A stretch of DNA of 64,000 nucleotides from Oceanispirochaeta sp. (GTDB taxonomy: Bacteria > Spirochaetota > Spirochaetia > DSM-2461), in the NCBI GenBank assembly GCA_963666275.2, contig CAXXOA010000001.1:992001-1056000 (forward strand), given 5' to 3'. The translations under genes and the position numbers were made by a program. Of the stretch, positions 42,533 to 63,736 are shown in pieces; position 1 is the first letter of the stretch, and every line of letters begins with the position of its first letter. Below the pieces are notes generated by a model that was given only the letters and a program-made list of their open reading frames with translations, did no database searches and was not told the DNA's origin.

Positions 42533-42808
42533 TTATTTATATGCTTCATCATGAGACCCAATGCTTATGGGAATTATAGTATCATCTTGTATCAGGAACT
42601 CAACTGTAATTCGGTATGAAATATTAATTGATATGCTATATAACTCTGATAAATTACCTTTTAATTGATGTAAGCGTAGAGATGGGTGATTGGGGTTTAT
42701 TTCCATTAGCTGCAATGCCTTAGAATACTGTTTTTTTATCTCTGGGTGTTTTTTTAAGAATTTTGCAGCTTTTTTTTCGTAACTATGTGTAAATATAATT
42801 TTAGGCAT
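42533..42808 (-). CDS. RelE/YafQ-like type II toxin
   Basis: HPSLRLHQLKG, YSISINISYRI, SIGSHDEAY; overlaps the antitoxin stop. Confidence 0.88.
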   Translation of the reverse strand: MPKIIFTHSYEKKAAKFLKKHPEIKKQYSKALQLMEINPNHPSLRLHQLKGNLSELYSISINISYRITVEFLIQDDTIIPISIGSHDEAYK

Positions 42809-43058
42809 CAGTTATTCTTTCTATATGGTCTTCTATACTACCGGTATAATATTTTCCTTCTTGTATATCTTTCTTAGCTTCAACCAATGCTGCTTCAAGT
42901 TCACATTCTCTTAAGCGGTTGTATTCATCCATTGAAAGAACAACATATTTACTTTTACCTCGGACAGTTATGACTGCTTCATTCTCCTCTGAGATGACTT
43001 GATCCAGAACAGATACACCTTTAACTTTCAAATCATTGGCTGTTATACTATTAAACAT
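42801..43058 (-). CDS. Phd/YefM family antitoxin
   Basis: ITANDLK...AVITVRGKSKYVVLSMDEY. Confidence 0.9.
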   Translation of the reverse strand: MFNSITANDLKVKGVSVLDQVISEENEAVITVRGKSKYVVLSMDEYNRLRECELEAALVEAKKDIQEGKYYTGSIEDHIERITDA

Positions 43059-44665: not shown

Positions 44666-44836
44666 ATTTAACACCCAAATATGATGCGAAGCGGCCTGAC
44701 CGAAGGGCAGGTATAGGCGCTTTTCTTGCTCCTTTATTCTAAACACCAGTTCGTTATTTGAGAAGAACAATTACTTTATCGAAGCTATTTCTGCAAGAAA
44801 TGTGATCTATAGCTTCGACTGCATCATTTGTTATCC
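44666..44836 (-). other. attC site, intron-free, one arm apparently shortened
   Basis: atttaac-acc-caaatatgatgc-gaagc ... ttttcttgc ... gcaagaaa ... gcttc-gact-gcatca-ttt-gttatcc. Confidence 0.75.
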
Positions 44837-45789
44837 AATTTTCTATATCTTGTCATTCTACCTTTACCTGAAGACACAATCCTCTTTTCTTCTAGTAATT
44901 GCTTTAAATCTCTGCTTGCTGTTGCACTAGATATACCTTTACAGACACTCATGTATTCTTTTCTATCAAACCAATCTTCTAGTTTTGATAAAGCTATTTT
45001 TGATCGTTTTTCATAATCAGGATTAACTGGTTTTGATTCATTAATTGTATTTCTTAGAGCTTCATTTATTACGTTCAACATGAATTCAATAAAAACAGTC
45101 GATTTTCCAGTATTATCCGATATTGATAACACTTTATAATACTCTTGCTGATTATCCTTAATTAACTTTTCTATTGGAACAAATTCAAATATCGGATTCA
45201 CATTCATCAATATCCGTGTTTGCCAAAATCTGCCCATACGACCATTTCCATCTTCAAAAGGGTGAATAAATTCCATTTCATAATGAAATACACAGCTTTT
45301 AATGATTTCTTGATCTTCATCGTGTTTTAAATATTGAAATAAATCTTTCATCAAACCTGGTACCATTTCTGAAGTAGGAGCAATATGTGTAACTTCTTTA
45401 CCTTTCATTATCCCAACTTGAGATTTTCGAAATTCACCAGGATTTGGAACTAAACCCTCCATTAAGATCCTATGTGCGTCTAAGAAATCTTTATTACTAT
45501 GTGGTTTAAAGGAATTTAATCGCTCATATGCGACAATTGCATTTTGAACTTCTAGAATATCTTTACTTGGGGCAATTATTCTTTGATTATCAATCAAGGC
45601 AGTAACATTCTCAATATTTAAAGTGTTACCTTCTATTGATAAGGATGATTGAATTGTTTTAATTCTATTTTGTCTTCTGAGTCTTGCTTCTGGTTTTACA
45701 AGCATTAAACTTTGGCAAATACCCAATCCTTCAGTTATTTGACCATATAATTTTAAAATTCGGTTTGTAATTTCATACGGTGGTTTCAT
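44824..45789 (-). CDS. Fic family protein with C-terminal HTH (cassette gene)
   Basis: SSLSIEGN; canonical HPFEDGNGRMGR; ISSATASRDLKQL HTH. Confidence 0.95.
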   Translation of the reverse strand: MKPPYEITNRILKLYGQITEGLGICQSLMLVKPEARLRRQNRIKTIQSSLSIEGNTLNIENVTALIDNQRIIAPSKDILEVQNAIVAYERLNSFKPHSNKDFLDAHRILMEGLVPNPGEFRKSQVGIMKGKEVTHIAPTSEMVPGLMKDLFQYLKHDEDQEIIKSCVFHYEMEFIHPFEDGNGRMGRFWQTRILMNVNPIFEFVPIEKLIKDNQQEYYKVLSISDNTGKSTVFIEFMLNVINEALRNTINESKPVNPDYEKRSKIALSKLEDWFDRKEYMSVCKGISSATASRDLKQLLEEKRIVSSGKGRMTRYRKLDNK

Positions 45790-45853: not shown

Positions 45854-46004
45854 GGATAACGTCCGGTTCTGTGGAATGCCGTTAAATGGCGCTTTTCTTG
45901 CTTTACTATGTTAACCAGCTTTTTCATAGCTAAAAATGCTTACCGAATTAATAATAAACCCAAAGCAAGAAATGTGACATAGGCATTTCCATAGCAACCG
46001 TTTG
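45854..46004 (-). other. attC site interrupted by intron A1 (completed by 47915-47920)
   Basis: ggataac-gtc-cggtt-ctgtggaatgcc ... ggcatttccatag-caaccg-ttt-g|ttatgt. Confidence 0.9.
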
Positions 46005-47914
46005 GTACGCCTGACATGGCAATAAACTTATGAGTTGAAAGTCCACTACAGCTACCCACGTATAGTAAACATGCTATACCAACTGTTAGCCGACGGCAAG
46101 GGCAATTCCGTGAGGAATTGTCTGGAGGAAGCCTGAGTGCAAAACCGGGAGCCCATGTATAAGAATGTGATATGGAATGCGAGTCACGCAGCATTCCACC
46201 CCCCAGTTCCGGAGGCTGGTCGCAAACAAGTTTGCTGCTCGCCCATGCAGCCTAGGGCGAGTCAGCCAATGATGACGATGCCCCGTGGGTGAGGGATAGG
46301 GTAAATCACAGGGTTGTCCGGCCCTGGTCGTAAACTTCGCTTGCTGCTCGCCCATGCAACCGGGGCATAGTAGCCAACGCCCGGAGTAATGTCCGGTTCA
46401 TGGTGAAGGCCTGAACATTTCACAAGGAGGAGCCTTATGGTTCTCAAAGGAACAATTTCAGTTTATGCCGGAATCACTTTTGGCGGACCATGGAGAAACA
46501 AGCCTTGAACGAATCTATGATGGATTTGATTTTATCCTCTGAAAATATGCACAAAGCCTGGAAACAGGTCAAACGCAATGGAGGTAGCCCTGGAATCGAC
46601 GGTATCACTGTCGAGAAGTTTCCAGGATATCTGAAAACCAGATGGCCTAGAATCAAACGAGCTTTGCTCAACGGGTACTATGTACCTTCTCCGGTGCTGA
46701 GGGTAGAAATCCCGAAGAAATCCGGAGGCTGGTCGCAAACAAGTTTGCTGCTCGCCCATGCAACCGGGGGAAAACGGATGCTGGGAATCCCGACAGTTCT
46801 AGACAGGGTTATCCAGCAGGCTATTTCACAGGTTCTGAATCCCATATTTGATCCGGATTTCTCGGAGCATAGCTATGGATTCAGACCGGGAAGATCGGCT
46901 CACGGAGCAGTGAAACAGGTAAATCAACATGTCAAATCCGGGTATAGATACGCCGTGGATCTGGACTTGGAAAAGTTCTTTGATACAGTTAATCATGATA
47001 TCCTGATGCATTTTGTGGCTGTAAAAGTCTGGGACAAATCTGTCCTCAGACTCATCGGCCGTTACCTGAGAGCCGGTATTCAGTTGGACAATGGAAAAGT
47101 GATTCCTACAGACATCGGCACACCCCAAGGCGGGCCCTTATCACCTCTGCTTTCCAATATCCTCCTTGATCGGTTGGATATGGAACTGGAGAGAAGAAAT
47201 GTGAGGTTCGCACGGTATGCAGATGACACTATCCTTTTAACGAAGAGATTGTGTGATGCTAGGAAGATCCTACAGGAAGTTTCAATATTTCTGGTAAGGA
47301 AATTGAAATTGGTAGTGAATCAGGAGAAAACGAAAGTTGCAAAGATAAGGGAGTGCAGTTTCCTGGGATTCACATTCAAGGGTAAGAAGATTCGCTGGAC
47401 AGAGTCGTCCTTTGAGGATTTTCGGTATCATCTGAAATATCTGACAAGGCGTTCCTGGGGTGTTTCCATGGAATACAGAATCGGGAAACTCAATGAGTAT
47501 ATCCGGGGCTGGATGAACTACTATGGGATCTCCCAATATTACAGCCCTATACAGAATCTTGATGACTGGCTCCTTAGGAGGATTCGCATGTGCTACTGGA
47601 AACAGTGGCGATATCCCAGAACGAAAGTCAGGAAACTGATGGAACTGGGAATTCCGAAAGATTTTGCCATTATCACCGGTGCCAGTAGTAAATCCTATTG
47701 GCATCTCTCCAAGTCTTACGCTACCAATGCAGCTATGTCCAATAAATGGCTGGAAGAGCAGGGATTGGTCAATATCAAATATCTGTGGTGTAAAGCCCAG
47801 GGATATATCTGATCAAATCAGGATTTCGTTTGCTCCATGGAGTGAACCGCCCCGTGCGGACCCGCATGCGGGGTGGTGTGGGGGCTGGAGGTTAAAAGCC
47901 TCCGGCTACCCGAT
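46005..47914 (+). mobile_element. Group IIC-attC intron, lineage A copy 1 (1910 nt; 5' RNA damaged)
   Basis: 5' GTACGCC, DV gaaccgccccgtgcggacccgcatgcggggtggtgtg, 3' CCCGAT; 229-nt segment replaced and hairpin inserts relative to copy 2. Confidence 0.93.
46490..47812 (+). CDS. ltrA: Group II intron reverse transcriptase/maturase (no endonuclease domain), with 14-aa insert
   Basis: PGIDG, LGIPTVLDR, SYGFRPGR, DLEKFFD, GTPQGGPLSPLL, RYADD, domain X. Confidence 0.95.
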   Translation: MEKQALNESMMDLILSSENMHKAWKQVKRNGGSPGIDGITVEKFPGYLKTRWPRIKRALLNGYYVPSPVLRVEIPKKSGGWSQTSLLLAHATGGKRMLGIPTVLDRVIQQAISQVLNPIFDPDFSEHSYGFRPGRSAHGAVKQVNQHVKSGYRYAVDLDLEKFFDTVNHDILMHFVAVKVWDKSVLRLIGRYLRAGIQLDNGKVIPTDIGTPQGGPLSPLLSNILLDRLDMELERRNVRFARYADDTILLTKRLCDARKILQEVSIFLVRKLKLVVNQEKTKVAKIRECSFLGFTFKGKKIRWTESSFEDFRYHLKYLTRRSWGVSMEYRIGKLNEYIRGWMNYYGISQYYSPIQNLDDWLLRRIRMCYWKQWRYPRTKVRKLMELGIPKDFAIITGASSKSYWHLSKSYATNAAMSNKWLEEQGLVNIKYLWCKAQGYI

Positions 47915-47922
47915 TTATGTGG

Positions 47923-48786
47923 TCAATTATTTATTACCAAGTATTCAGTCAAACATAATTGATCATTCTTTTTTCCAATAACAAATAAGATATTTCTTTC
48001 AAAGTCATAATCTATAGAATATATTCTAGTTTCTTCTGAATTTATATTTTCCATTTTTGTTATACCTTCATCAATATTATAAAGCTTGAAATTGTTAATG
48101 CAAGAAGTTAGAAAACGATTATTACCAATATAAACAGCAGATGTTATAAGTTCTTTTTCATCTATTTTATACTTGTCTTCATTATTAGTTATATAATATT
48201 CATATCCTTTATACGGAATATTAATCCCATAAATGAAGTCTTTTGAATTTAATTTATGATCAAAAACCATTAATTCATTTTCTGTAATAACTGTCTCACA
48301 AAAGCCTGAAATTAATGAGTATTTTTGGATCTTTACTTTTTTTTCTCCAGGAAAATATCTCTCAATAAAAAAAGATGTATCAGTATCCCAGAAAATATTC
48401 CTAATGATTAAGAGTTCATCTTTACTTGTAATTAAAGCATCCAAATTTGAATCCAATCTATTCTCTTCAACTAAAGTAATTCCAGAGAACCAACCCGAAT
48501 GCCCTGAAATAAACAATAATGAATTATCCATGAAACTCATGCTAAAGATTGATAGTTCATCAGGAATAAGTGAGCTTATATTATTCCTTTCACCATTTTC
48601 ATCATAAAAATAGAGAGAATGCCCCATCGAAATATAAAAACCATTATTAGTTCCTGAAACAAGTAGTGGTAATCCTTCTCTATTGAAATAGAATTCATCA
48701 ATTTTCTGTAGTTCTAATGAATATAAATTTGTAAATATCAATATGACTAATAAATATGTAATTGCTTTTTTCATCATTAATTCCAT
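47923..48786 (-). CDS. Exported protein of unknown function (putative immunity partner)
   Basis: Signal peptide MKKAITYLLVILIFTNLYS; beta-rich; abuts the stop of the upstream gene within the same cassette. Confidence 0.7.
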   Translation of the reverse strand: MELMMKKAITYLLVILIFTNLYSLELQKIDEFYFNREGLPLLVSGTNNGFYISMGHSLYFYDENGERNNISSLIPDELSIFSMSFMDNSLLFISGHSGWFSGITLVEENRLDSNLDALITSKDELLIIRNIFWDTDTSFFIERYFPGEKKVKIQKYSLISGFCETVITENELMVFDHKLNSKDFIYGINIPYKGYEYYITNNEDKYKIDEKELITSAVYIGNNRFLTSCINNFKLYNIDEGITKMENINSEETRIYSIDYDFERNILFVIGKKNDQLCLTEYLVINN

Positions 48787-49844
48787 TAAAAGTAAAACGT
48801 TGAAGGATTGATTAATTTTCCATTGATATGCGTTCTAAAATCTAAATGTGGATTGGTAGACATGCCAGTTGAGCCGATAGAACCAATTATCTGACCTTGT
48901 TCAACCCATTGCCCATTTTCAACTGAAACTGTTGATAGATGAGAATATTGTGATGAAACTTTAAAGAAGGGAACATCTTTATCATTAGGAAATTGCTTTG
49001 CATAATCAATAAATAAACTGTTACCATAGGCATCAGATAGAGAACTATCAAATCTTATATAACCAGAATGAGCCGCGTATACTGGATCACCAAGAGGACA
49101 ATCATAATCAATCCCACCATGCCATCGGTTGATTTCTTCTCCTTGATAAAACAGCTTACAAAACCCATAATTTTCCGTTACAATTGGATCATCAACAGGA
49201 ACAATAAAACCTAATTCTAACAAACAAGATGGTCTTGTAATTTCAACATAGTGCCTAACAGGGTCACTTGCCTCCAATTGCTCAAAAGAATTATCATACA
49301 TGTCTTTATAATGATCGCTTACATTCTCGTAACAAGCTTTTTTATTCTCCTTTGGAGCAGGAGCGGGTGGAGTTTCTTCCTTCGGAGCAGATTTCATTAT
49401 CGGCTTATCATCATCTTCTCCATCTAGCCATAAATCTTCATAGATTAATTCTATTCTTTCTACTGCGATACCATTTGCTCTAAAATCTAATGTGGGGCCA
49501 ATCCAACGGCAGGGTAAAGCACGAAAGAAATTCCAACGTTTTACTTCTTCACCGCTTTGATCCATTAAAATAACTGAACCGCTTCTCCTTTCTACTGGCT
49601 TGTCGGAATGAATTACATCATAGTACCAACGGTATAAATCATCACAAGTAGAAATACCTTTTTCGAGAATCAAATTTGGGAAACGAGTTCTTCCCTCAAA
49701 TCGATGAATTCCATACCCGCCTTCTTCCACTTCATAAACATATTTTTCTGATTCGAGACCTTCACAACGAGAAAATGTTGTTGTTATGACTCCATCCAGT
49801 TCTAATGCAAAACAATGTGGTAAATAAGAATCTGATCTATTCAT
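48786..49844 (-). CDS. Phage tail tube (T4 gp19-like) domain fused to an M23 family peptidase domain
   Basis: FALELDG...FSRCEGL...EGG...NLILEKG...LYRW...RRSGSVILMD...RWNFFRALPCRWIGP...AVERIELIYE; P-rich linker; HGGIDY, PVYAAHSG, YSHL, V.QGQ.IG..GSTG.ST.PHLDF. Confidence 0.85.
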   Translation of the reverse strand: MNRSDSYLPHCFALELDGVITTTFSRCEGLESEKYVYEVEEGGYGIHRFEGRTRFPNLILEKGISTCDDLYRWYYDVIHSDKPVERRSGSVILMDQSGEEVKRWNFFRALPCRWIGPTLDFRANGIAVERIELIYEDLWLDGEDDDKPIMKSAPKEETPPAPAPKENKKACYENVSDHYKDMYDNSFEQLEASDPVRHYVEITRPSCLLELGFIVPVDDPIVTENYGFCKLFYQGEEINRWHGGIDYDCPLGDPVYAAHSGYIRFDSSLSDAYGNSLFIDYAKQFPNDKDVPFFKVSSQYSHLSTVSVENGQWVEQGQIIGSIGSTGMSTNPHLDFRTHINGKLINPSTFYF

Positions 49845-50128
49845 TACTAATCTCCCCAAATAATGATTTCTTGTTTTACATTTAGTAATTTACGTCATTA
49901 ATATATATTGATTCTTTTAATGATTCTTGTCACTAGATAATATGAATTGTTTTTCTTACAAATAACCCATTTTCTTCGTAGCATAATCCTCCACCGGAGG
50001 TTTCTTCCCAATTTTTCTCCCACTGGGGTTTCTTTCTATTTCATACTTATTCTTCCATCCGGCGGAAGAAATCTAATTCTATCCGTATAGTGTAACATAC
50101 AAAGGTGTATAATGAACAGCCGTAACCC

Positions 50129-50233
50129 ACATAACATCGATTTAACTAGCAGACAGATAGCTGGCGGATTCTGTGCCTGCAAAGCAGATAAGCACAGAAT
50201 GTGACCAGCCTGGCTGACTAGTTCAAATCCTTG
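50129..50233 (-). other. attC site interrupted by intron A2 (completed by 52265-52270)
   Basis: acataac-atc-gatttaactag ... attctgtgc-ctgc-aaa-gcag-ataa-gcacagaat ... ctagttcaaatc-ctt-g|ttagat. Confidence 0.9.
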
Positions 50234-52264
50234 GTACGCCTGACATGGCAATAAACTTATGAGGTGAAAGTCCTCTACAGCTACCCACGTATAGTAAACA
50301 TGCTATACCAACTGTTAGCCGACGGCAAGGGCAATTCCGTGAGGAATTGTCTGGAGGAAGCCTGAGTGCAAAACCGGGAGCCCATGTACAAGAATGTGAT
50401 AGAAGGCCCAGTTCTGGAGGTGAGTCAGCCAATGATGACGATGCCCCGTGGGTGAGGGATAGGGTAAATCACAGGGTTGTCCGGGGAATGTTTATTGTCT
50501 TATTCGGGGAGATCTGTCTGCAAGGCGGTAACACCGGTTTGACCGTGAGAATCCGGAGGATACCGGGGTAACAAATCCAGGCCTATCAGGGGATGACACT
50601 CTGATAAGGAGCCGTTTATACGGAACACAAAGAAGTCGTCACAGCGATTCAAACCGGATGATACAGCGTCAGCAGGAGTAATTCAACTGATAAGCAGACA
50701 GAAGTCAGCAGAAGGCATAGTAGCCAACGCCCGGAGTAATGTCCGGTTCATGGTGAAGGTCTGAACATTTCACAAGGAGGAGCCTTATGGTTCTCAAAGG
50801 AACAATTTCAGTTTATGCCGGAATCACTTTTGGCGGACCATGGAGAAACCAGCCTTGAACGAATCTATGATGGATTTGATTTTATCCTCTGAAAATATGC
50901 ACAAAGCCTGGAAACAGGTCAAACGCAATGGAGGTAGCCCTGGAATCGACGGTATCACTGTCGAGAAGTTTCCAGGATATCTGAAAACCAGATGGCCTAG
51001 AATCAAACGAGCTTTGCTCAACGGGTACTATGTACCTTCTCCGGTGCTGAGGGTAGAAATCCCGAAGAAATCCGGAGGCTGGTCGCAAACAAGTTTGCTG
51101 CTCGCCCATGCAACCGGGGGAAAACGGATGCTGGGAATCCCGACAGTTCTAGACAGGGTTATCCAGCAGGCTATTTCACAGGTTCTGAATCCCATATTTG
51201 ATCCGGATTTCTCGGAGCATAGCTATGGATTCAGACCGGGAAGATCGGCTCACGGAGCAGTGAAACAGGTAAACCAACATGTCAAATCCGGGTATAGATA
51301 CGCCGTGGATCTGGACTTGGAAAAGTTCTTTGATACAGTTAATCATGATATCCTGATGCATTTTGTGGCTGTAAAAGTCCGGGACAAATCTGTCCTCAGA
51401 CTCATCGGCCGTTACCTGAGAGCCGGTATTCAGTTGGACAATGGAAAAGTGATTCCTACAGACATCGGCACACCCCAAGGCGGGCCCTTATCACCTCTGC
51501 TTTCCAATATCCTCCTTGATCGGTTGGATATGGAACTGGAGAGAAGAAATGTGAGGTTCGCACGGTATGCAGATGACACTATCCTTTTAACGAAGAGATT
51601 GTGTGATGCTAGGAAGATCCTACAGGAAGTTTCAATATTTCTGGTAAGGAAATTGAAATTGGTAGTGAATCAGGAGAAAACGAAAGTTGCAAAGATAAGG
51701 GAGTGCAGTTTCCTGGGATTCACATTCAAGGGTAAGAAGATTCGCTGGACAGAGTCGTCCTTTGAGGATTTTCGGTATCATCTGAAATATCTGACAAGGC
51801 GTTCCTGGGGTGTTTCCATGGAATACAGAATCGGGAAACTCAATGAGTATATCCGGGGCTGGATGAACTACTATGGGATCTCCCAATATTACAGCCCTCT
51901 ACAGAACCTTGATGACTGGCTCCGTAGGAGGATTCGCATGTGCTACTGGAAACAGTGGCGATATCCCAGAACGAAAGTCAGGAAACTGATGGAACTGGGA
52001 ATTCCGAAAGATTTTGCCATTATCACCGGTGCCAGTAGTAAATCCTATTGGCATCTCTCCAAGTCTTACGCTACCAATGCAGCTATGTCCAATAAATGGC
52101 TGGAAGAGCAGGGATTGGTCAATATCAAATATCTGTGGTGTAAAGCCCAGGGATATATCTGATCAAATCAGGATTTCGTTTGCTCCATGGAGTGAACCGC
52201 CCCGTGCGGACCCGCATGCGGGGTGGTGTGGGGGCTGGAGGTTAAAAGCCTCCGGCTACCCGAT
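50234..52264 (+). mobile_element. Group IIC-attC intron, lineage A copy 2 (2031 nt)
   Basis: GTACGCC...CCCGAT; same length as copy 5 plus a 42-bp insert in the ORF. Confidence 0.95.
50840..52162 (+). CDS. ltrA: Group II intron reverse transcriptase/maturase, with 14-aa insert
   Basis: Same RT motifs including RYADD. Confidence 0.95.
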   Translation: MEKPALNESMMDLILSSENMHKAWKQVKRNGGSPGIDGITVEKFPGYLKTRWPRIKRALLNGYYVPSPVLRVEIPKKSGGWSQTSLLLAHATGGKRMLGIPTVLDRVIQQAISQVLNPIFDPDFSEHSYGFRPGRSAHGAVKQVNQHVKSGYRYAVDLDLEKFFDTVNHDILMHFVAVKVRDKSVLRLIGRYLRAGIQLDNGKVIPTDIGTPQGGPLSPLLSNILLDRLDMELERRNVRFARYADDTILLTKRLCDARKILQEVSIFLVRKLKLVVNQEKTKVAKIRECSFLGFTFKGKKIRWTESSFEDFRYHLKYLTRRSWGVSMEYRIGKLNEYIRGWMNYYGISQYYSPLQNLDDWLRRRIRMCYWKQWRYPRTKVRKLMELGIPKDFAIITGASSKSYWHLSKSYATNAAMSNKWLEEQGLVNIKYLWCKAQGYI

Positions 52265-52273
52265 TTAGATTGT

Positions 52274-53299
52274 CTATATATATAAATCAATTCCTCCAAA
52301 TTCTTTTACAAAATCAATAATGGTTTTAATATTTTGTAATGATCTATATTTCTCAAGAAAATCTATTTGTCTTTTATCAAAGTAAATTAACAAAATACAA
52401 GCATGACTACGTGTTTCCTCATGAATTGTTTCATCTGCGATAATTTCTCTTAAATATTCAATTTTATTACTATTACAATTAATAATAGCTTCAACAGACT
52501 GTCCAATACTGCCTCTTTGGATCCCAATCTCTGGATTAATAAATTCTAACAGTTTAATTATTGTTTTTTTGGGGATATTTGCTAATAAAATCTTTGCATA
52601 ATTTCGTGTTTCGTCAGTAAGTTGTGTTCCTGTATAGAAGATATCTGGATGTCCTGGAACATGAGCAATATAATAAATTAGTTGACTTGAAATGTCATAG
52701 ATCGTTGAAGAAGTTATATAATCAATAAAAATATCCCATATAACTTTTTCATTTTTATAATTGCTAAATAGAATCGATGAACCGAGCGAGTGTTCTTGGA
52801 TGATATCGGATTTGAAGAGTTCTATACTTTCCTCTATAGTCAATTCTGGTATCTTTCGAATCATTTGTGGTAGAAATAGATTTGAAAAACTTTTCTTTTC
52901 AATAATATTTGTTCTATTTAGAAATATTTTGATTGAAGTATCATTAGGAAAATCATGCAAATATTTTTTAATGTCAATCCAATATGCTTTATCATTTTGA
53001 TCATCATATACTATTCCATGTACAGGCAAGGAATAATTCGACCAGTAATCACGATGATCTTCAATTTGAAAAAAAGCATAATCACGTTTTTTAGAAAAAT
53101 ATGATTTTCCTGATTTGATCTGATATGCAATAGAAGTATTAGTTGGGGAACCATTTAAAAAGAATTCAATTATACAATCTATTCCAAAATCATTTTCTTG
53201 TTCAATTTTATGGAAAATAGATCCAGATTCTTCCACTAGTGACTTAATAAAGTTTATTCCACGTTTTGCTGTTATTGATGATGGTTTCAATTTACCCAA
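52274..53299 (-). CDS. DUF4365-like PD-(D/E)XK nuclease domain protein (cassette gene)
   Basis: ENDFGIDCIIEF...IAYQIKSGKSY...YW....LPV..IVYD....AYW. Confidence 0.75.
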   Translation of the reverse strand: MGKLKPSSITAKRGINFIKSLVEESGSIFHKIEQENDFGIDCIIEFFLNGSPTNTSIAYQIKSGKSYFSKKRDYAFFQIEDHRDYWSNYSLPVHGIVYDDQNDKAYWIDIKKYLHDFPNDTSIKIFLNRTNIIEKKSFSNLFLPQMIRKIPELTIEESIELFKSDIIQEHSLGSSILFSNYKNEKVIWDIFIDYITSSTIYDISSQLIYYIAHVPGHPDIFYTGTQLTDETRNYAKILLANIPKKTIIKLLEFINPEIGIQRGSIGQSVEAIINCNSNKIEYLREIIADETIHEETRSHACILLIYFDKRQIDFLEKYRSLQNIKTIIDFVKEFGGIDLYI

Positions 53300-56340: not shown

Positions 56341-57246
56341 TTACTTGAGTCCGGCTGTTACTGCCAGACTAATTTCCTGTTCATAATACATCATTTCAAA
56401 CTCTTGTGGAGAAATATATCCCAGAGGTTCCATGATCCGTTTGTTATTATACCAATCCACCCAGTCTAAAGTAGCCAGTTCAACCTGTTCAATCGAGCGC
56501 CAGGGACCATCTTTGTGAATGACTTCTGCCTTGTATAGACCGTTTATTGTCTCTGCCAGAGCATTGTCATAAGAGTCACCTTTACTCCCAACTGATGGAT
56601 CAATTCCTGCTTCAATAAGTCGTTCTGTATAGGAAATAGCCAGATATTGAGAACCACGATCACTATGATGGATCAGCTTTTCTGTTACCTGTCTTGCCCA
56701 CAATGCCTGATTGAGTGCATCCAAAGTAAAATCCGTTTTCATTGACGTTGATGCCCGCCACCCGACAATCATTCTTGAAAATACATCAATTATGAAAGCA
56801 ACATAAACAAATCCCCTCCAAGTGGAAACATAGGTGAAGTCAGCCACCCACAGCTCGTTTGGCCTGGAAGCAGTGAAATCCCGGTTTACAAGATCATCAG
56901 GCCTGTTATCTTTCGTCGGAATCGTTGTCCTGACTTTCTTACCACGAATTACACCACGAAGCCCCATGGCACGCATTAAACGCTCTACAGTGCATCTGGC
57001 GACGGGGATTCCTTCTTTATTCATGGCCTGCCAGACTTTTTTAGCTCCATATACACATCTATTCTCAAACCAGACCCGTTTGATTTCATCTTTCAGGTGG
57101 TTATCCCTTTTTACTCTTGGAGGCTCTCTGTCTGGATCTGATTGCCGTGATTTCATTTCGTAATAGGTTGATGGAGCTATCTGAATATTCTTACAGAGAG
57201 GCTCGACTCCATGATTTTCCCTATTCTTATCAATGAAATTGACCAT
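56341..57246 (-). CDS. IS3 transposase OrfB (DDE)
   Basis: WVADFTYV, HHSDRGSQY, SYDNALAETINGLYKAE. Confidence 0.95.
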   Translation of the reverse strand: MVNFIDKNRENHGVEPLCKNIQIAPSTYYEMKSRQSDPDREPPRVKRDNHLKDEIKRVWFENRCVYGAKKVWQAMNKEGIPVARCTVERLMRAMGLRGVIRGKKVRTTIPTKDNRPDDLVNRDFTASRPNELWVADFTYVSTWRGFVYVAFIIDVFSRMIVGWRASTSMKTDFTLDALNQALWARQVTEKLIHHSDRGSQYLAISYTERLIEAGIDPSVGSKGDSYDNALAETINGLYKAEVIHKDGPWRSIEQVELATLDWVDWYNNKRIMEPLGYISPQEFEMMYYEQEISLAVTAGLK

Positions 57247-57566
57247 TATTTCTTTCGGCGGTCGAGCTCCGCCTGGGCGAAATATGCTGATGCCTTACGC
57301 AATATCTCATTGGCTTCTCTTAGCTCACGAACTTCTCTTTCAAGTTCCTTTATTCTTGCCCGTTCTTCACTGGAGACGCCTTCCTTGATACCACGGTCTA
57401 TCTCGGTTTGTTTTACCCATTTTCTCAGAGACTCCGGAGTACACCCGGTTTTTGAGGCTATTGAAATTATTGCTGCCCACCGTGATTCATAGTCTTTTTC
57501 ATGATCAAAGACCATCCTGACTGCCCGCTCTTTAACTTCTTGAGCATACCTGATTCTTTTTCCCAT
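57246..57566 (-). CDS. IS3 transposase OrfA
   Basis: RAVRMV...LRKWV...[30 protein letters not shown]. Confidence 0.95.
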
Positions 57567-62050: not shown

Positions 62051-63736
62051 CTAAATTGCCTCGAAAAATATCAACTCTACATCGTAGCCAATCATATCTA
62101 ATCTTTCGTAGAACATATTTAAATTTATCTTACTAAATAATGGAATTGAAAAACTTCCACTTCTATCCTTTTTTGTTATGATACCATATGCAATAATATA
62201 GTTGCTTTTATCAAAACGGTCTAAAGTTGAAAAATGAAGTACTGTATTTGAGATTATAGTATTGGCCTCAATCCTAAAATTCTTATCGTTTAATCTTTCA
62301 CCAGAAACAAGTCCTTGGCTAAACAAATGACTTAATGCACTTGAACCATATTTGAATTTATTATGTAGTAATACAATTTTTCCATTTTCTTTAAAAATCA
62401 CATCACAAATTTCAGTTTTCTTTATAAGTTTTGTATCTAGAAGATCTGCATCATATGAGTTTTTCAAAAATGATGATAAATCTGAGTTATAAACGAATTC
62501 TTTATTCTTATTTTGTTTTTTTGCCTTAAGCCCAATTGCAGATATATTATATGGAAAACTAATATTACGACTTTGACTGATAATGCTTTGATATTTTGCA
62601 TCTACAACTGATATAAAATCATTATTTACTTTGTACCAAACCCCACTTTCTATAAAATAATGTGTATTTTGGTGATTTATATCAAAATAAAGACATTGAT
62701 ATACCTTTTGGGAGAATCTATCTCTATTTGTATTTATATCAACAGCAATTACCTGTTGTCTTTTTATATCATCGACTGATAATGTTAAGTTTTGAACTTT
62801 CGGATAATACTGATCGATTATGTCTAACTCTGGATATCTTGATGTATCAGACCGTCTGGGGGTAATACTTGAATAGCGATAGTAAATTGGTGCATTTTTA
62901 TCTAGGGTTTCAGGAAATGAGAGTAATATGTTTTGATTTTTCTTATTTAATTCATCGACTAATAATTCATCAAGCTTTGAAATCAATCCTTTATCCTTTA
63001 TGATTCGGAAATTATCTACCCAATCAAAACCTTTCCTTCTATAGTCATCAAGTTGATACTTTTCTATTAACATATTAACTATTGATAACAGCTCACTCGA
63101 ATCTCCTGAGTATGAAAACTTAATACTATCTGCACCATCAATATTCTTAAAATAGTCTTCAAATTCGGCTTTTACTTTTCCAGCAATATTTTTTAGTAAT
63201 GAGTTATATATATTTATTTCGTACTCATCAAATTTCGTTTGTTTTCCTGATTGTTTTCTTGTACGTAAAGCTATTTCAGATGGTGTAAATAGATCGGCTG
63301 ATTTTATTTTCTCTTCATCTAATAAGTTTAATGCTGTTTTCAATCCGAAATCATATTCTATTGCTATGGGATTAATTAAAAAGCGGCCGTGCCCATGTGC
63401 AATAATTACTTTTTTTCCATTTATCTCTTTCAAGATAATTAAATCCGTTGATTTATTTTCTAGATTTGGTTCTGGAATTTGCCAAAAATCTTTCCACCAA
63501 GGATTTGGATTATCAGAATTACGGTAATAAACATTATGTGTTGAGGTCGACTTATGAATCGGCCTAAATTCTATTTTTCTATCCACTAGGAATCTATGTA
63601 TTAAGTTGTCATTATTTGTTGAGACACCATTATTGAAGACGCTTCTATTGTTTACAATTACTGAGCTATTCTGAACAGAATATCGTTCATTAAAATTATA
63701 TCCATCTTTTACGAGGTAAATAGTAAATCTAGGCAT
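62051..63736 (-). CDS. DUF6119/TIGR04141-like protein (cassette gene)
   Basis: FTIYLVK, GHGRFL...IEYDFGLKTALN, G.WY.VN..F, EICD, HNK...SSALSHLFSQGLVS, IPLFSKINL. Confidence 0.75.
   Translation of the reverse strand: MPRFTIYLVKDGYNFNERYSVQNSSVIVNNRSVFNNGVSTNNDNLIHRFLVDRKIEFRPIHKSTSTHNVYYRNSDNPNPWWKDFWQIPEPNLENKSTDLIILKEINGKKVIIAHGHGRFLINPIAIEYDFGLKTALNLLDEEKIKSADLFTPSEIALRTRKQSGKQTKFDEYEINIYNSLLKNIAGKVKAEFEDYFKNIDGADSIKFSYSGDSSELLSIVNMLIEKYQLDDYRRKGFDWVDNFRIIKDKGLISKLDELLVDELNKKNQNILLSFPETLDKNAPIYYRYSSITPRRSDTSRYPELDIIDQYYPKVQNLTLSVDDIKRQQVIAVDINTNRDRFSQKVYQCLYFDINHQNTHYFIESGVWYKVNNDFISVVDAKYQSIISQSRNISFPYNISAIGLKAKKQNKNKEFVYNSDLSSFLKNSYDADLLDTKLIKKTEICDVIFKENGKIVLLHNKFKYGSSALSHLFSQGLVSGERLNDKNFRIEANTIISNTVLHFSTLDRFDKSNYIIAYGIITKKDRSGSFSIPLFSKINLNMFYERLDMIGYDVELIFFEAI

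Follow-up and report, generated by a model that had tools for sequence, protein, structure and literature searches.

In type VI secretion systems (T6SS) of Enterobacteriaceae, an Hcp tube subunit with a variable C-terminal toxin (Hcp-ET) is followed by a cognate immunity gene, and the tips described in the available passages are antibacterial (PMC6730261, PMC8262886). Effectors of extracellular contractile injection systems (eCIS) such as Afp, PVC, and AlgoCIS appear in the corresponding passages as separate cargo, mostly encoded in or beside the operon and loaded by N-terminal signals, and antibacterial eCIS toxin-immunity pairs are known (PMC6899500, PMC8213781, PMC3482391, PMC12961389). According to excerpts on their structures, a single Pvc5 ring, whose lumen measures 45 angstroms, separates Pvc7 from the Pvc1 stack in PVC (PMC12546770), and Alg5 and Alg7 of AlgoCIS make up an initiator complex in which the C-terminal LysM of Alg7 points outwards (PMC8894135). 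Here, we describe a gene pair, ORF1/ORF2, in a 64,000-nt stretch of Oceanispirochaeta sp. DNA (assembly GCA_963666275.2, contig CAXXOA010000001.1, positions 992,001 to 1,056,000), hereafter the window; the genome and its contig are called G000 and C1. ORF1 joins a contractile injection system (CIS) tube domain to an M23 peptidase domain, and ORF2 encodes a putative immunity protein. Our sequence comparisons support the interpretation put forward in an earlier note on this DNA (the original prediction), namely, that the cassette carrying the pair is an effector-immunity module, which we assign to a spirochaete CIS encoded at G000:C1:2.18–2.23 Mb. Titles of the nearest named relatives identify the host as a spirochaete.

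The pair and its parts are arranged as follows.
48786..49844, minus strand: ORF1, a 352-aa tube-effector fusion (P0001) with no signal peptide
49431..49811, minus strand: gp19-type tube domain of ORF1, CIS5/Afp5-like (residues ~12–138; PF06841, E 8e-28)
49215..49430, minus strand: K/P/D/E-rich linker and pre-M23 segment of ORF1 (residues ~139–210; mostly low model confidence)
48804..49121, minus strand: M23 peptidase domain of ORF1 (H242xxxD246, H302, H333xD335; Asp replaces the usual third zinc-binding His)
47923..48786, minus strand: ORF2, 287 aa with a signal peptide; putative periplasmic immunity protein, all-beta, probably a beta-propeller
49845..50128, minus strand: cassette leader with a ribosome site

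The two minus-strand genes overlap by 1 base (TAATG), and their coordinates bear out the earlier description of two abutting genes in one cassette. The likely start of ORF1 is the ATG at 49844, which follows a GGGGAG ribosome site and yields the 352-aa product; a TTG at 49859 is disfavoured. Pfam finds Phage_T4_gp19 (E 8e-28) and Peptidase_M23 (E 6e-22) in ORF1, each above cut-off. An AlphaFold model built from a 45-row alignment (mean pLDDT 76) contains two confident domains separated by low-confidence residues ~151–210, and a Foldseek search with this model returned M23 peptidases (best E 5e-10) and Pvc5 (E 1e-6). The profile searches and structure prediction that had been proposed as a check recovered both the gp19 tube and the M23 domain; the gp19-like N terminus is also matched by sequence in the PDB. 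The linker and the HGGID, YSHL, and PHLDF motifs are all present as originally read, and a single hydrophobic N-terminal stretch in ORF2, absent from ORF1, agrees with the signal peptide assigned to the second gene.

The N-terminal domain exceeds the cut-offs of both PF06841 and TIGR02241 and adopts a tube fold, as gp19-type CIS tubes do. The original prediction had named Afp1/Afp5 among the known gp19-like tubes. The fused tube is probably of the Afp5/CIS5 single-ring adaptor type rather than of the main Afp1 type: on NCBIfam models the fused tube scores 57.4 bits for CIS5 versus 28.8 for CIS1 (both below cut-off, the CIS5 equivalog cut-off being 260), and it is 61% identical to tube B versus 27% to tube A of its own genome's CIS. 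Tube B likewise prefers CIS5 over CIS1 and tube A CIS1 over CIS5, with every score below cut-off. Among 112 distinct tube sequences, tube B is the best stand-alone match of the fused tube. A PDB sequence search gave Pvc5 as the best hit, yet Afp1 outscored Afp5. Two quick trees group the fused tube with stand-alone Spirochaetaceae tubes (SH-aLRT 91 and 93) on a long branch, and a single clade of all fused tubes is compatible with the data in an AU test (p 0.53). Given the long branch and this p value, a claim that the fusion in the window arose independently was dropped.

By tblastn, two further gp19 tubes were found in the genome, both in the CIS locus at 2.18–2.23 Mb, 1.16 Mb from the cassette. 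The locus encodes gp25, baseplate J, two sheaths, tube A, tube B, a CIS_tube+LysM initiator, a GPD hub, and an AAA ATPase, together with VgrG-type OB proteins, a LuxR regulator, and three DUF4157 genes. It thus has the tube, sheath, baseplate J, gp25, spike/hub, tube initiator, and AAA ATPase that define an eCIS locus; no Afp16 (DUF4255) match was present among its scanned genes. The gene for tube B directly precedes that of the Afp7-like CIS_tube+LysM initiator. A search for an eCIS locus had been proposed as a check, and it turned up this complete one. Two findings that would have refuted the original prediction, an N terminus unlike gp19 tubes and the lack of a contractile system, were thereby not borne out. 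As first noted, the window itself is devoid of sheath genes, since the three PF04984 matches of the genome all lie outside it. A T6SS was rejected as the partner machine because neither Hcp (PF05638) nor VipB was found in the 97%-complete genome; with no PF05638 match and no T6SS in the genome, ORF1 falls outside the T6SS specialised effectors of the Hcp-ET kind.

Several other features of the spirochaete CIS locus were observed. It contains conserved signal-peptide or membrane proteins (a vWA protein with a membrane helix, a lipoprotein-like gene, and an FHA protein; L001 18626–19810, L002 2926–4783), and the same gene order is kept in L038/L039 and L042 (L numbers are our locus handles). Such proteins may mean that the machine is anchored in the envelope rather than released. 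Downstream of the CIS genes (G000:C1:2184000–2195400; L001 1–10400, L004), a DUF4157 gene followed by two variable genes is repeated three times. With a hydrophobic N terminus in the last gene, these repeats look like further toxin-immunity units.

Protein searches returned many gp19 tubes with tails, and source names, where given, were mostly Treponema. Tails longer than 90 aa are carried by 111 of the 116 pooled tube proteins and sort into 28 tip classes. Among the tips, Pfam recognises NlpC/P60 (36 proteins), M23 (11), Tox-GHH, GH-E, WHH/colicin DNase, DddA-like, PT-HINT, DUF6883, and PG_binding_1; most of the 28 classes have no Pfam name, and the labels CHAP-like, C39-like, and lysozyme-like are by-eye motif readings that Pfam did not confirm. 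Judged by domain composition, the family is a polymorphic toxin family, with a constant N-terminal carrier and many unrelated tips that include several curated toxin families. Each of the 11 further fusions tested prefers the CIS5 model to CIS1.

In the loci compared, the fused tubes are encoded apart from sheath genes. In fetched metagenome DNA (79 loci, weak or truncated matches dropped), a sheath gene was present with 0 of 22 fused and 41 of 57 unfused tubes, the unfused group including short contigs and a few truncated fusions. In genome loci (n = 52), none of the 11 fusion loci had a sheath gene. A sheath was nevertheless found in 5 of the 11 fusion-bearing genomes (G000, G270, G746, G749, and G750). 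In G270, a chromosomal array comprises three intact fusions that differ in tip and partner gene, and the machine is on a 165-kb contig. Of 61 near relatives, gp19 tubes are present in 10 and a fusion in G000 alone; tubes occur in 9 of 401 genomes of the phylum, and viral contigs gave a single distant tube locus (29%). Also in G270, baseplate-hub-like genes with long variable C-termini are followed by variable small genes (L036 16340–18079, L037, and L039 10272–18900), and such hub-gene arrays are present on both contigs. These are possibly a second carrier family, with hub-fused effectors.

The gene that follows the fusion was compared at 27 loci. It has a signal-peptide-like start after all 22 wall-enzyme-type or unknown tips and after none of four nuclease-like or fragmentary tips, L064 being an odd case. 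All 20 similarity links among 23 next genes fall within one tip class, a count inflated by near-identical copies. On these comparisons, both the sequence and the compartment of the next gene track the tip, which is a family-level match to tip-specific immunity genes.

The M23 domain of ORF1 has H242, D246, H302, and H333 in place, with the third zinc ligand of the HxH motif replaced by D335 (codon GAT at 48842–48840), exactly the substitution of the second His that had been reported. Asp is a plausible zinc ligand. Searching 1.84 billion representatives with the C-terminal 182 aa yielded three close relatives (49–60%) plus further ones, with HLD[FY]R in each of the five nearest. The Asp had been presented as an oddity of this protein; its presence is confirmed, but it is a trait of a subfamily and not a lone mutation. 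Sequencing error and lone mutation were both ruled out by the HxD relatives and by a second copy of the cassette described below. The HxD subfamily (P0122, P0123, P0124, P0132, P0134, and eight more) also serves as an Rhs tip: P0132 is a 2129-aa SpvB/Rhs protein with the HxD M23 domain at its end, and P0122 has what we take to be an Rhs-core-like motif ahead of that domain. The tip therefore travels on another polymorphic carrier. At strict thresholds, 38 genomes at order level and 401 at class level yielded no HxD M23 relative with genomic context other than G000. The M23 tips fused to Treponema tubes show the usual HxH, and another partner gene accompanies them. The M23 domain of ORF1 is a probable cell-wall-cutting enzyme, and peptidoglycan would be its substrate.

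A single-sequence model of ORF2 is all-beta with a pLDDT of 44. Foldseek propeller matches and Atlas neighbours (DUF5050, 0.93) provide low-confidence leads, and the prediction tentatively leans to a beta-propeller. Beta-propeller immunity proteins are known for T6SS wall toxins. ORF2 would protect against the M23 tip.

Marine metagenome run X4 contains a 97%-identical variant of the cassette, which differs at 53 of 1715 bases and has no indel in either gene; the X4 pieces do not reach into neighbouring DNA. Run X5, with partial cover, and run X7, with none, were left out of the comparison. Codon effects were scored for the 40 of 93 difference rows listed, which span ORF2 and the C-terminal half of ORF1; two changes falling in one codon were scored singly. 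Among these, 16 silent and 8 replacement changes fall in ORF2 (pN/pS 0.12) and 10 silent and 6 replacement changes in the C-terminal half of ORF1 (pN/pS 0.15), none of them in the five M23 active-site residues. These ratios indicate that both genes are under purifying selection.

The boundaries of the cassette are formed by two attC sites, each interrupted by a group II intron.
45854..46004, minus strand: main body of the cassette's own attC, with core site GTTATCC at 45860–45854 and a long terminal loop; the intron separates the inverse core
46005..47914, plus strand: group II intron in the own attC, at G|TT of the inverse core on the attC bottom strand; reverse transcriptase (RT) ORF at 46490–47812
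47915..47920, minus strand: remaining inverse core of the own attC (ACATAA|C)
50129..50233, minus strand: upstream attC, belonging to the previous cassette; its core site GTTATGT begins the ORF1/ORF2 cassette
50234..52264, plus strand: second group II intron, in the upstream attC; RT ORF at 50840–52162, remaining inverse core at 52265–52270

When the introns were removed in silico (own attC, 45854–46004 plus 47915–47920; upstream attC, 50129–50233 plus 52265–52270), the own attC folded into a hairpin of −24.2 kcal/mol (z −3.9) and the upstream attC into one of −30.1 kcal/mol (z −7.8); in each case, 0 of 200 shuffles was as low. A covariance model trained on 9 other attC of the same genome (R1) scored them at 49.7 and 59.2 bits, respectively, and found no attC in 40 kb of the CIS locus. 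An integrase gene, intI, lies divergently at the array's head, 21.4 kb from the cassette, at G000:C1:1063760–1064701 (TIGR02249, 390 bits, cut-off 265). By these attC hairpins on both sides and the divergent integrase, the ORF1/ORF2 unit is an integron gene cassette with each attC split by an intron. The cassette ends originally proposed are correct, GTTATGT at 50135–50129 complementing the inverse core ACATAAC, but the extent is not: the physical cassette spans ~45860–50134, because most of the own attC lies past a 1.9-kb group II intron. Its GC content is 0.32, versus 0.48 for the CIS locus.

The surrounding array (window 40512–62005; L003, G000:C1:1032500–1061560) contains six complete group II introns and two 3′-end remnants, all at the identical inverse-core position; further intron copies occupy attC clusters on contigs C2 and C3 of G000. 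This heavy intron load may freeze cassette shuffling. The intron at 46005–47914 has a 42-base segment duplicated, at 46208–46249 in the 5′ RNA part and at 46721–46762 in frame in the RT gene, and RT copies are 440 or 426 aa long, a difference of 14 aa. Other array genes, at 42533–43058, 44824–45789, 52274–53299, 56341–57566, and 62051–63736, encode a Phd/YefM antitoxin with a RelE/YafQ-like toxin, Fic, DUF4365, an insertion sequence (IS), and DUF6119; the IS, placed within an intron, contains an integrase core gene and an ALIL pseudoknot.

The original prediction had also suggested looking for gp19 tubes with other toxin tips near attC sites, and these exist. R1, trained on the source genome only, detected attC in six foreign fusion loci. 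After retraining with some of these foreign hits included, the model placed attC at 7 of 43 orphan-tube loci versus 0 of 51 machine loci. A tube-toxin/partner pair is flanked by attC on both sides in L106, in the near-identical L149/L153, and in L090, where the tube gene is broken. A single genome, G746, is the source of L074, L078, and L090; it also encodes intI and a sheath. Counting the window, there are at most five independent cassette cases, and 36 of 43 orphan-tube loci have no attC. In L064, L075, L078, L048, and L160, the fusion starts right after a GTTRRRY core-like site, but no attC was detected there by the model (the contig ends, an IS is present, or the site has decayed). A cassette origin of tube fusions may be commoner than 7 of 43.

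We consider it probable that ORF1 acts as a specialised tube subunit, which takes its place among plain tube B subunits in the single CIS5 ring near the spike and brings a wall endopeptidase into a bacterium, with ORF2 as its periplasmic inhibitor. After synthesis in the cytoplasm, ORF1 would join the single adaptor ring just above the tube initiator and spike through its CIS5-type tube domain, alongside unfused tube B, the long linker allowing the M23 domain to be carried along in the lumen or beside the ring. Upon sheath contraction, the ORF1 end of the tube would be the first to enter the target, leaving the M23 domain at the peptidoglycan, where it would cut peptide cross-links through a His/Asp/Asp zinc site. 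ORF2, exported to the periplasm, would block the enzyme in the carrier and its kin, and the integron would shuttle such modules among spirochaetes that share the machine. Use of a one-ring adaptor would cap the load at ≤6 copies and spare the sheathed tube, which is perhaps why all tested fusions are CIS5-like.

A number of observations weigh against this mechanism. In the T6SS, a 30-kDa addition to Hcp cargo stalled assembly, as stated in part of PMC8262886; a folded tail may therefore not fit the tube. The tube in the window is on a long branch (0.83–0.89), and its identity to tube B is just 61%, where three Treponema-type fusion/machine pairs reach 72–77% and tube B orthologues share 87%. 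No sheath match was obtained in 6 of the 11 fusion-bearing genomes, which are metagenome assemblies with completeness not given, and in 4 of these 6, the fused tube is the only gp19 gene; we infer that the non-spirochaete labels on three of the six may be binning errors. Many of the fetched family loci span little DNA, and the counts are raised by near-identical copies. No sigma-70-like promoter was found on the coding strand of the leader (49845..50128), and an intron sits upstream. Excerpts of PMC3001079 state that group IIC-attC introns can block the integron promoter and provide their own. A homologue search with ORF2 returned only ORF2 itself, Pfam and NCBIfam gave no family for it, and the partner genes behind the Treponema tube-M23 fusions bear no relation to it. 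At position 335, Asp is rare (14 of 217 aligned M23 stretches, versus 198 with His), and a full-text literature search found no paper on an HxD M23 enzyme.

The tube domain could also be no more than a loading tag: by binding the tube end, a chaperone, or the AAA ATPase, it would have the toxin packed as lumen cargo without itself being incorporated into a ring. eCIS cargo is known to fill the lumen (part of PMC8894135), and the fused tube is more diverged than the structural tubes. However, an entire tube fold is retained with high model confidence, and the CIS5 signature is kept in 11 of 11 other fusions; both seem beyond the needs of a tag, making this alternative unlikely.

Just as improbable, in our estimate, is that ORF1 is not loaded in this genome at all, the cassette being foreign and kept for its immunity gene or being a passenger locked by two introns. 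Such a history would fit the low GC content of the cassette (0.32, with 0.48 in the CIS locus), the tube identity of just 61%, the intron-split state of both attC, and the 6 of 11 fusion genomes with no detectable sheath. It fits less well with purifying selection on the C-terminal half of ORF1 (pN/pS 0.15) in addition to ORF2 and with the finding that, among the stand-alone tubes compared, the best match is tube B of the same genome.

Tail-associated lysins of phages help the tube cross peptidoglycan, and the M23 domain might likewise be a structural aid, a tube-borne lysin or wall-binding domain that eases passage, with HxD marking lost catalysis. The largest tip classes are wall enzymes, the same fold is found in inactive M23 proteins such as EnvC, and the CIS5 ring is near the puncturing end (PMC12546770, in part). 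But tubes of this family also carry nucleases, a deaminase, and a HINT domain, their downstream genes are tip-specific, the HxD domain also terminates an Rhs protein, and the remaining four active-site residues are intact. We rate a structural aid as slightly less plausible than either preceding alternative.

That the fusion is part of the resident prophage or of a tailocin is very improbable: G000 does have a contractile-sheath prophage at C1:1.63–1.65 Mb, but the tube of this prophage belongs to phrog_185 and is not similar to the fused one (E 0.35), PHROGs gave no match for the fused tube, and viral contigs hold only the distant 29% locus. Of the two partners originally envisaged, the eCIS is supported by the locus and by tube B as best match, and a tailocin is unlikely. 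This prophage (G000:C1:1627000–1650000; L208) has head, sheath, and tube genes and is presumably Mu-like by gene order.

A specialised tube subunit with a toxin tip would bear on two questions of the field, how effectors are loaded into eCIS particles and whether eCIS attack bacteria. The covalent tube-toxin route would be a second loading route, an eCIS counterpart to Hcp-ET, next to the route described in the available literature passages, by N-terminal signals into the lumen. Immunity genes predict both a bacterial target and its compartment. The gp19 tube offers a new carrier domain for the mining of toxin families, and the HxD M23 subfamily is a separate enzymology lead. If the mechanism is correct, integrons swap payloads for a machine encoded elsewhere; the family also points to interbacterial warfare in spirochaetes without a T6SS. 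Whether the whole amounts to an undescribed polymorphic antibacterial system of spirochaetes, with an eCIS-class Afp5-type ring as the toxin carrier, pairs stored apart from the machine and traded as cassettes with which the integron rearms it, and an active HxD M23 enzyme with a new beta-propeller inhibitor, we judge to be evenly balanced.

No paper on gp19/Afp5 tube-toxin fusions or on CIS effectors in integron cassettes was found by the full-text literature search, which does not extend to supplementary tables (e.g., those of PMC8213781 and PMC3482391). A tube-toxin fusion is not described in the available portions of PMC11297309, PMC6899500, PMC8651086, PMC8213781, PMC12961389, PMC3482391, and bioRxiv 10.1101/2021.10.19.465003. 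The larger system, a specialised-tube effector on an eCIS-class machine that is partly mobilised by integrons, appears to be undescribed. Its components can each be set against a known counterpart. With M23 zinc endopeptidases (LytM, lysostaphin, ShyA, and Pgp3), the tip shares the fold (Foldseek E 5e-10), HxxxD, and two further histidines; it differs in having HxD for HxH, a tube fusion, and no signal peptide. As in the integron cassettes with group IIC-attC introns presented in the available text of PMC3001079, the introns are inserted in the bottom strand of attC, in opposite orientation to the genes of the cassette; here, in contrast, six complete intron copies occupy one array, and a part of an injection system is the cargo.

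Polymorphic toxins (Rhs, LXG, PAAR, and VgrG), as portrayed in sections of PMC3482391 and bioRxiv 10.1101/2021.10.19.465003, share with the tube fusions a constant carrier, an exchangeable tip, and tip-specific immunity. Tox-GHH, GH-E, WHH, DddA-like, and HINT tips are common to both, and M23-HxD also ends an Rhs protein. The methods passage of the bioRxiv paper does not include gp19 in its list of trafficking domains, and in the accessible text of PMC3482391, gp19 is named once, as a structural part. The module has the Hcp-ET order of tube subunit, variable C-terminal toxin, and cognate immunity gene. Compared with the Hcp-ET of the passages cited at the outset, its tube is of the gp19/CIS5 type (PF06841) in a genome without Hcp or VipB, and the tips are mostly wall enzymes with exported partners, on integron cassettes. 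With Afp, PVC, and AlgoCIS, as covered by the same partial sources, the system shares the core parts and the DUF4157 genes of its distant locus; unlike the effectors described for those machines, the effector here forms one protein with a structural tube subunit, and its gene lies 1.16 Mb from the machine.

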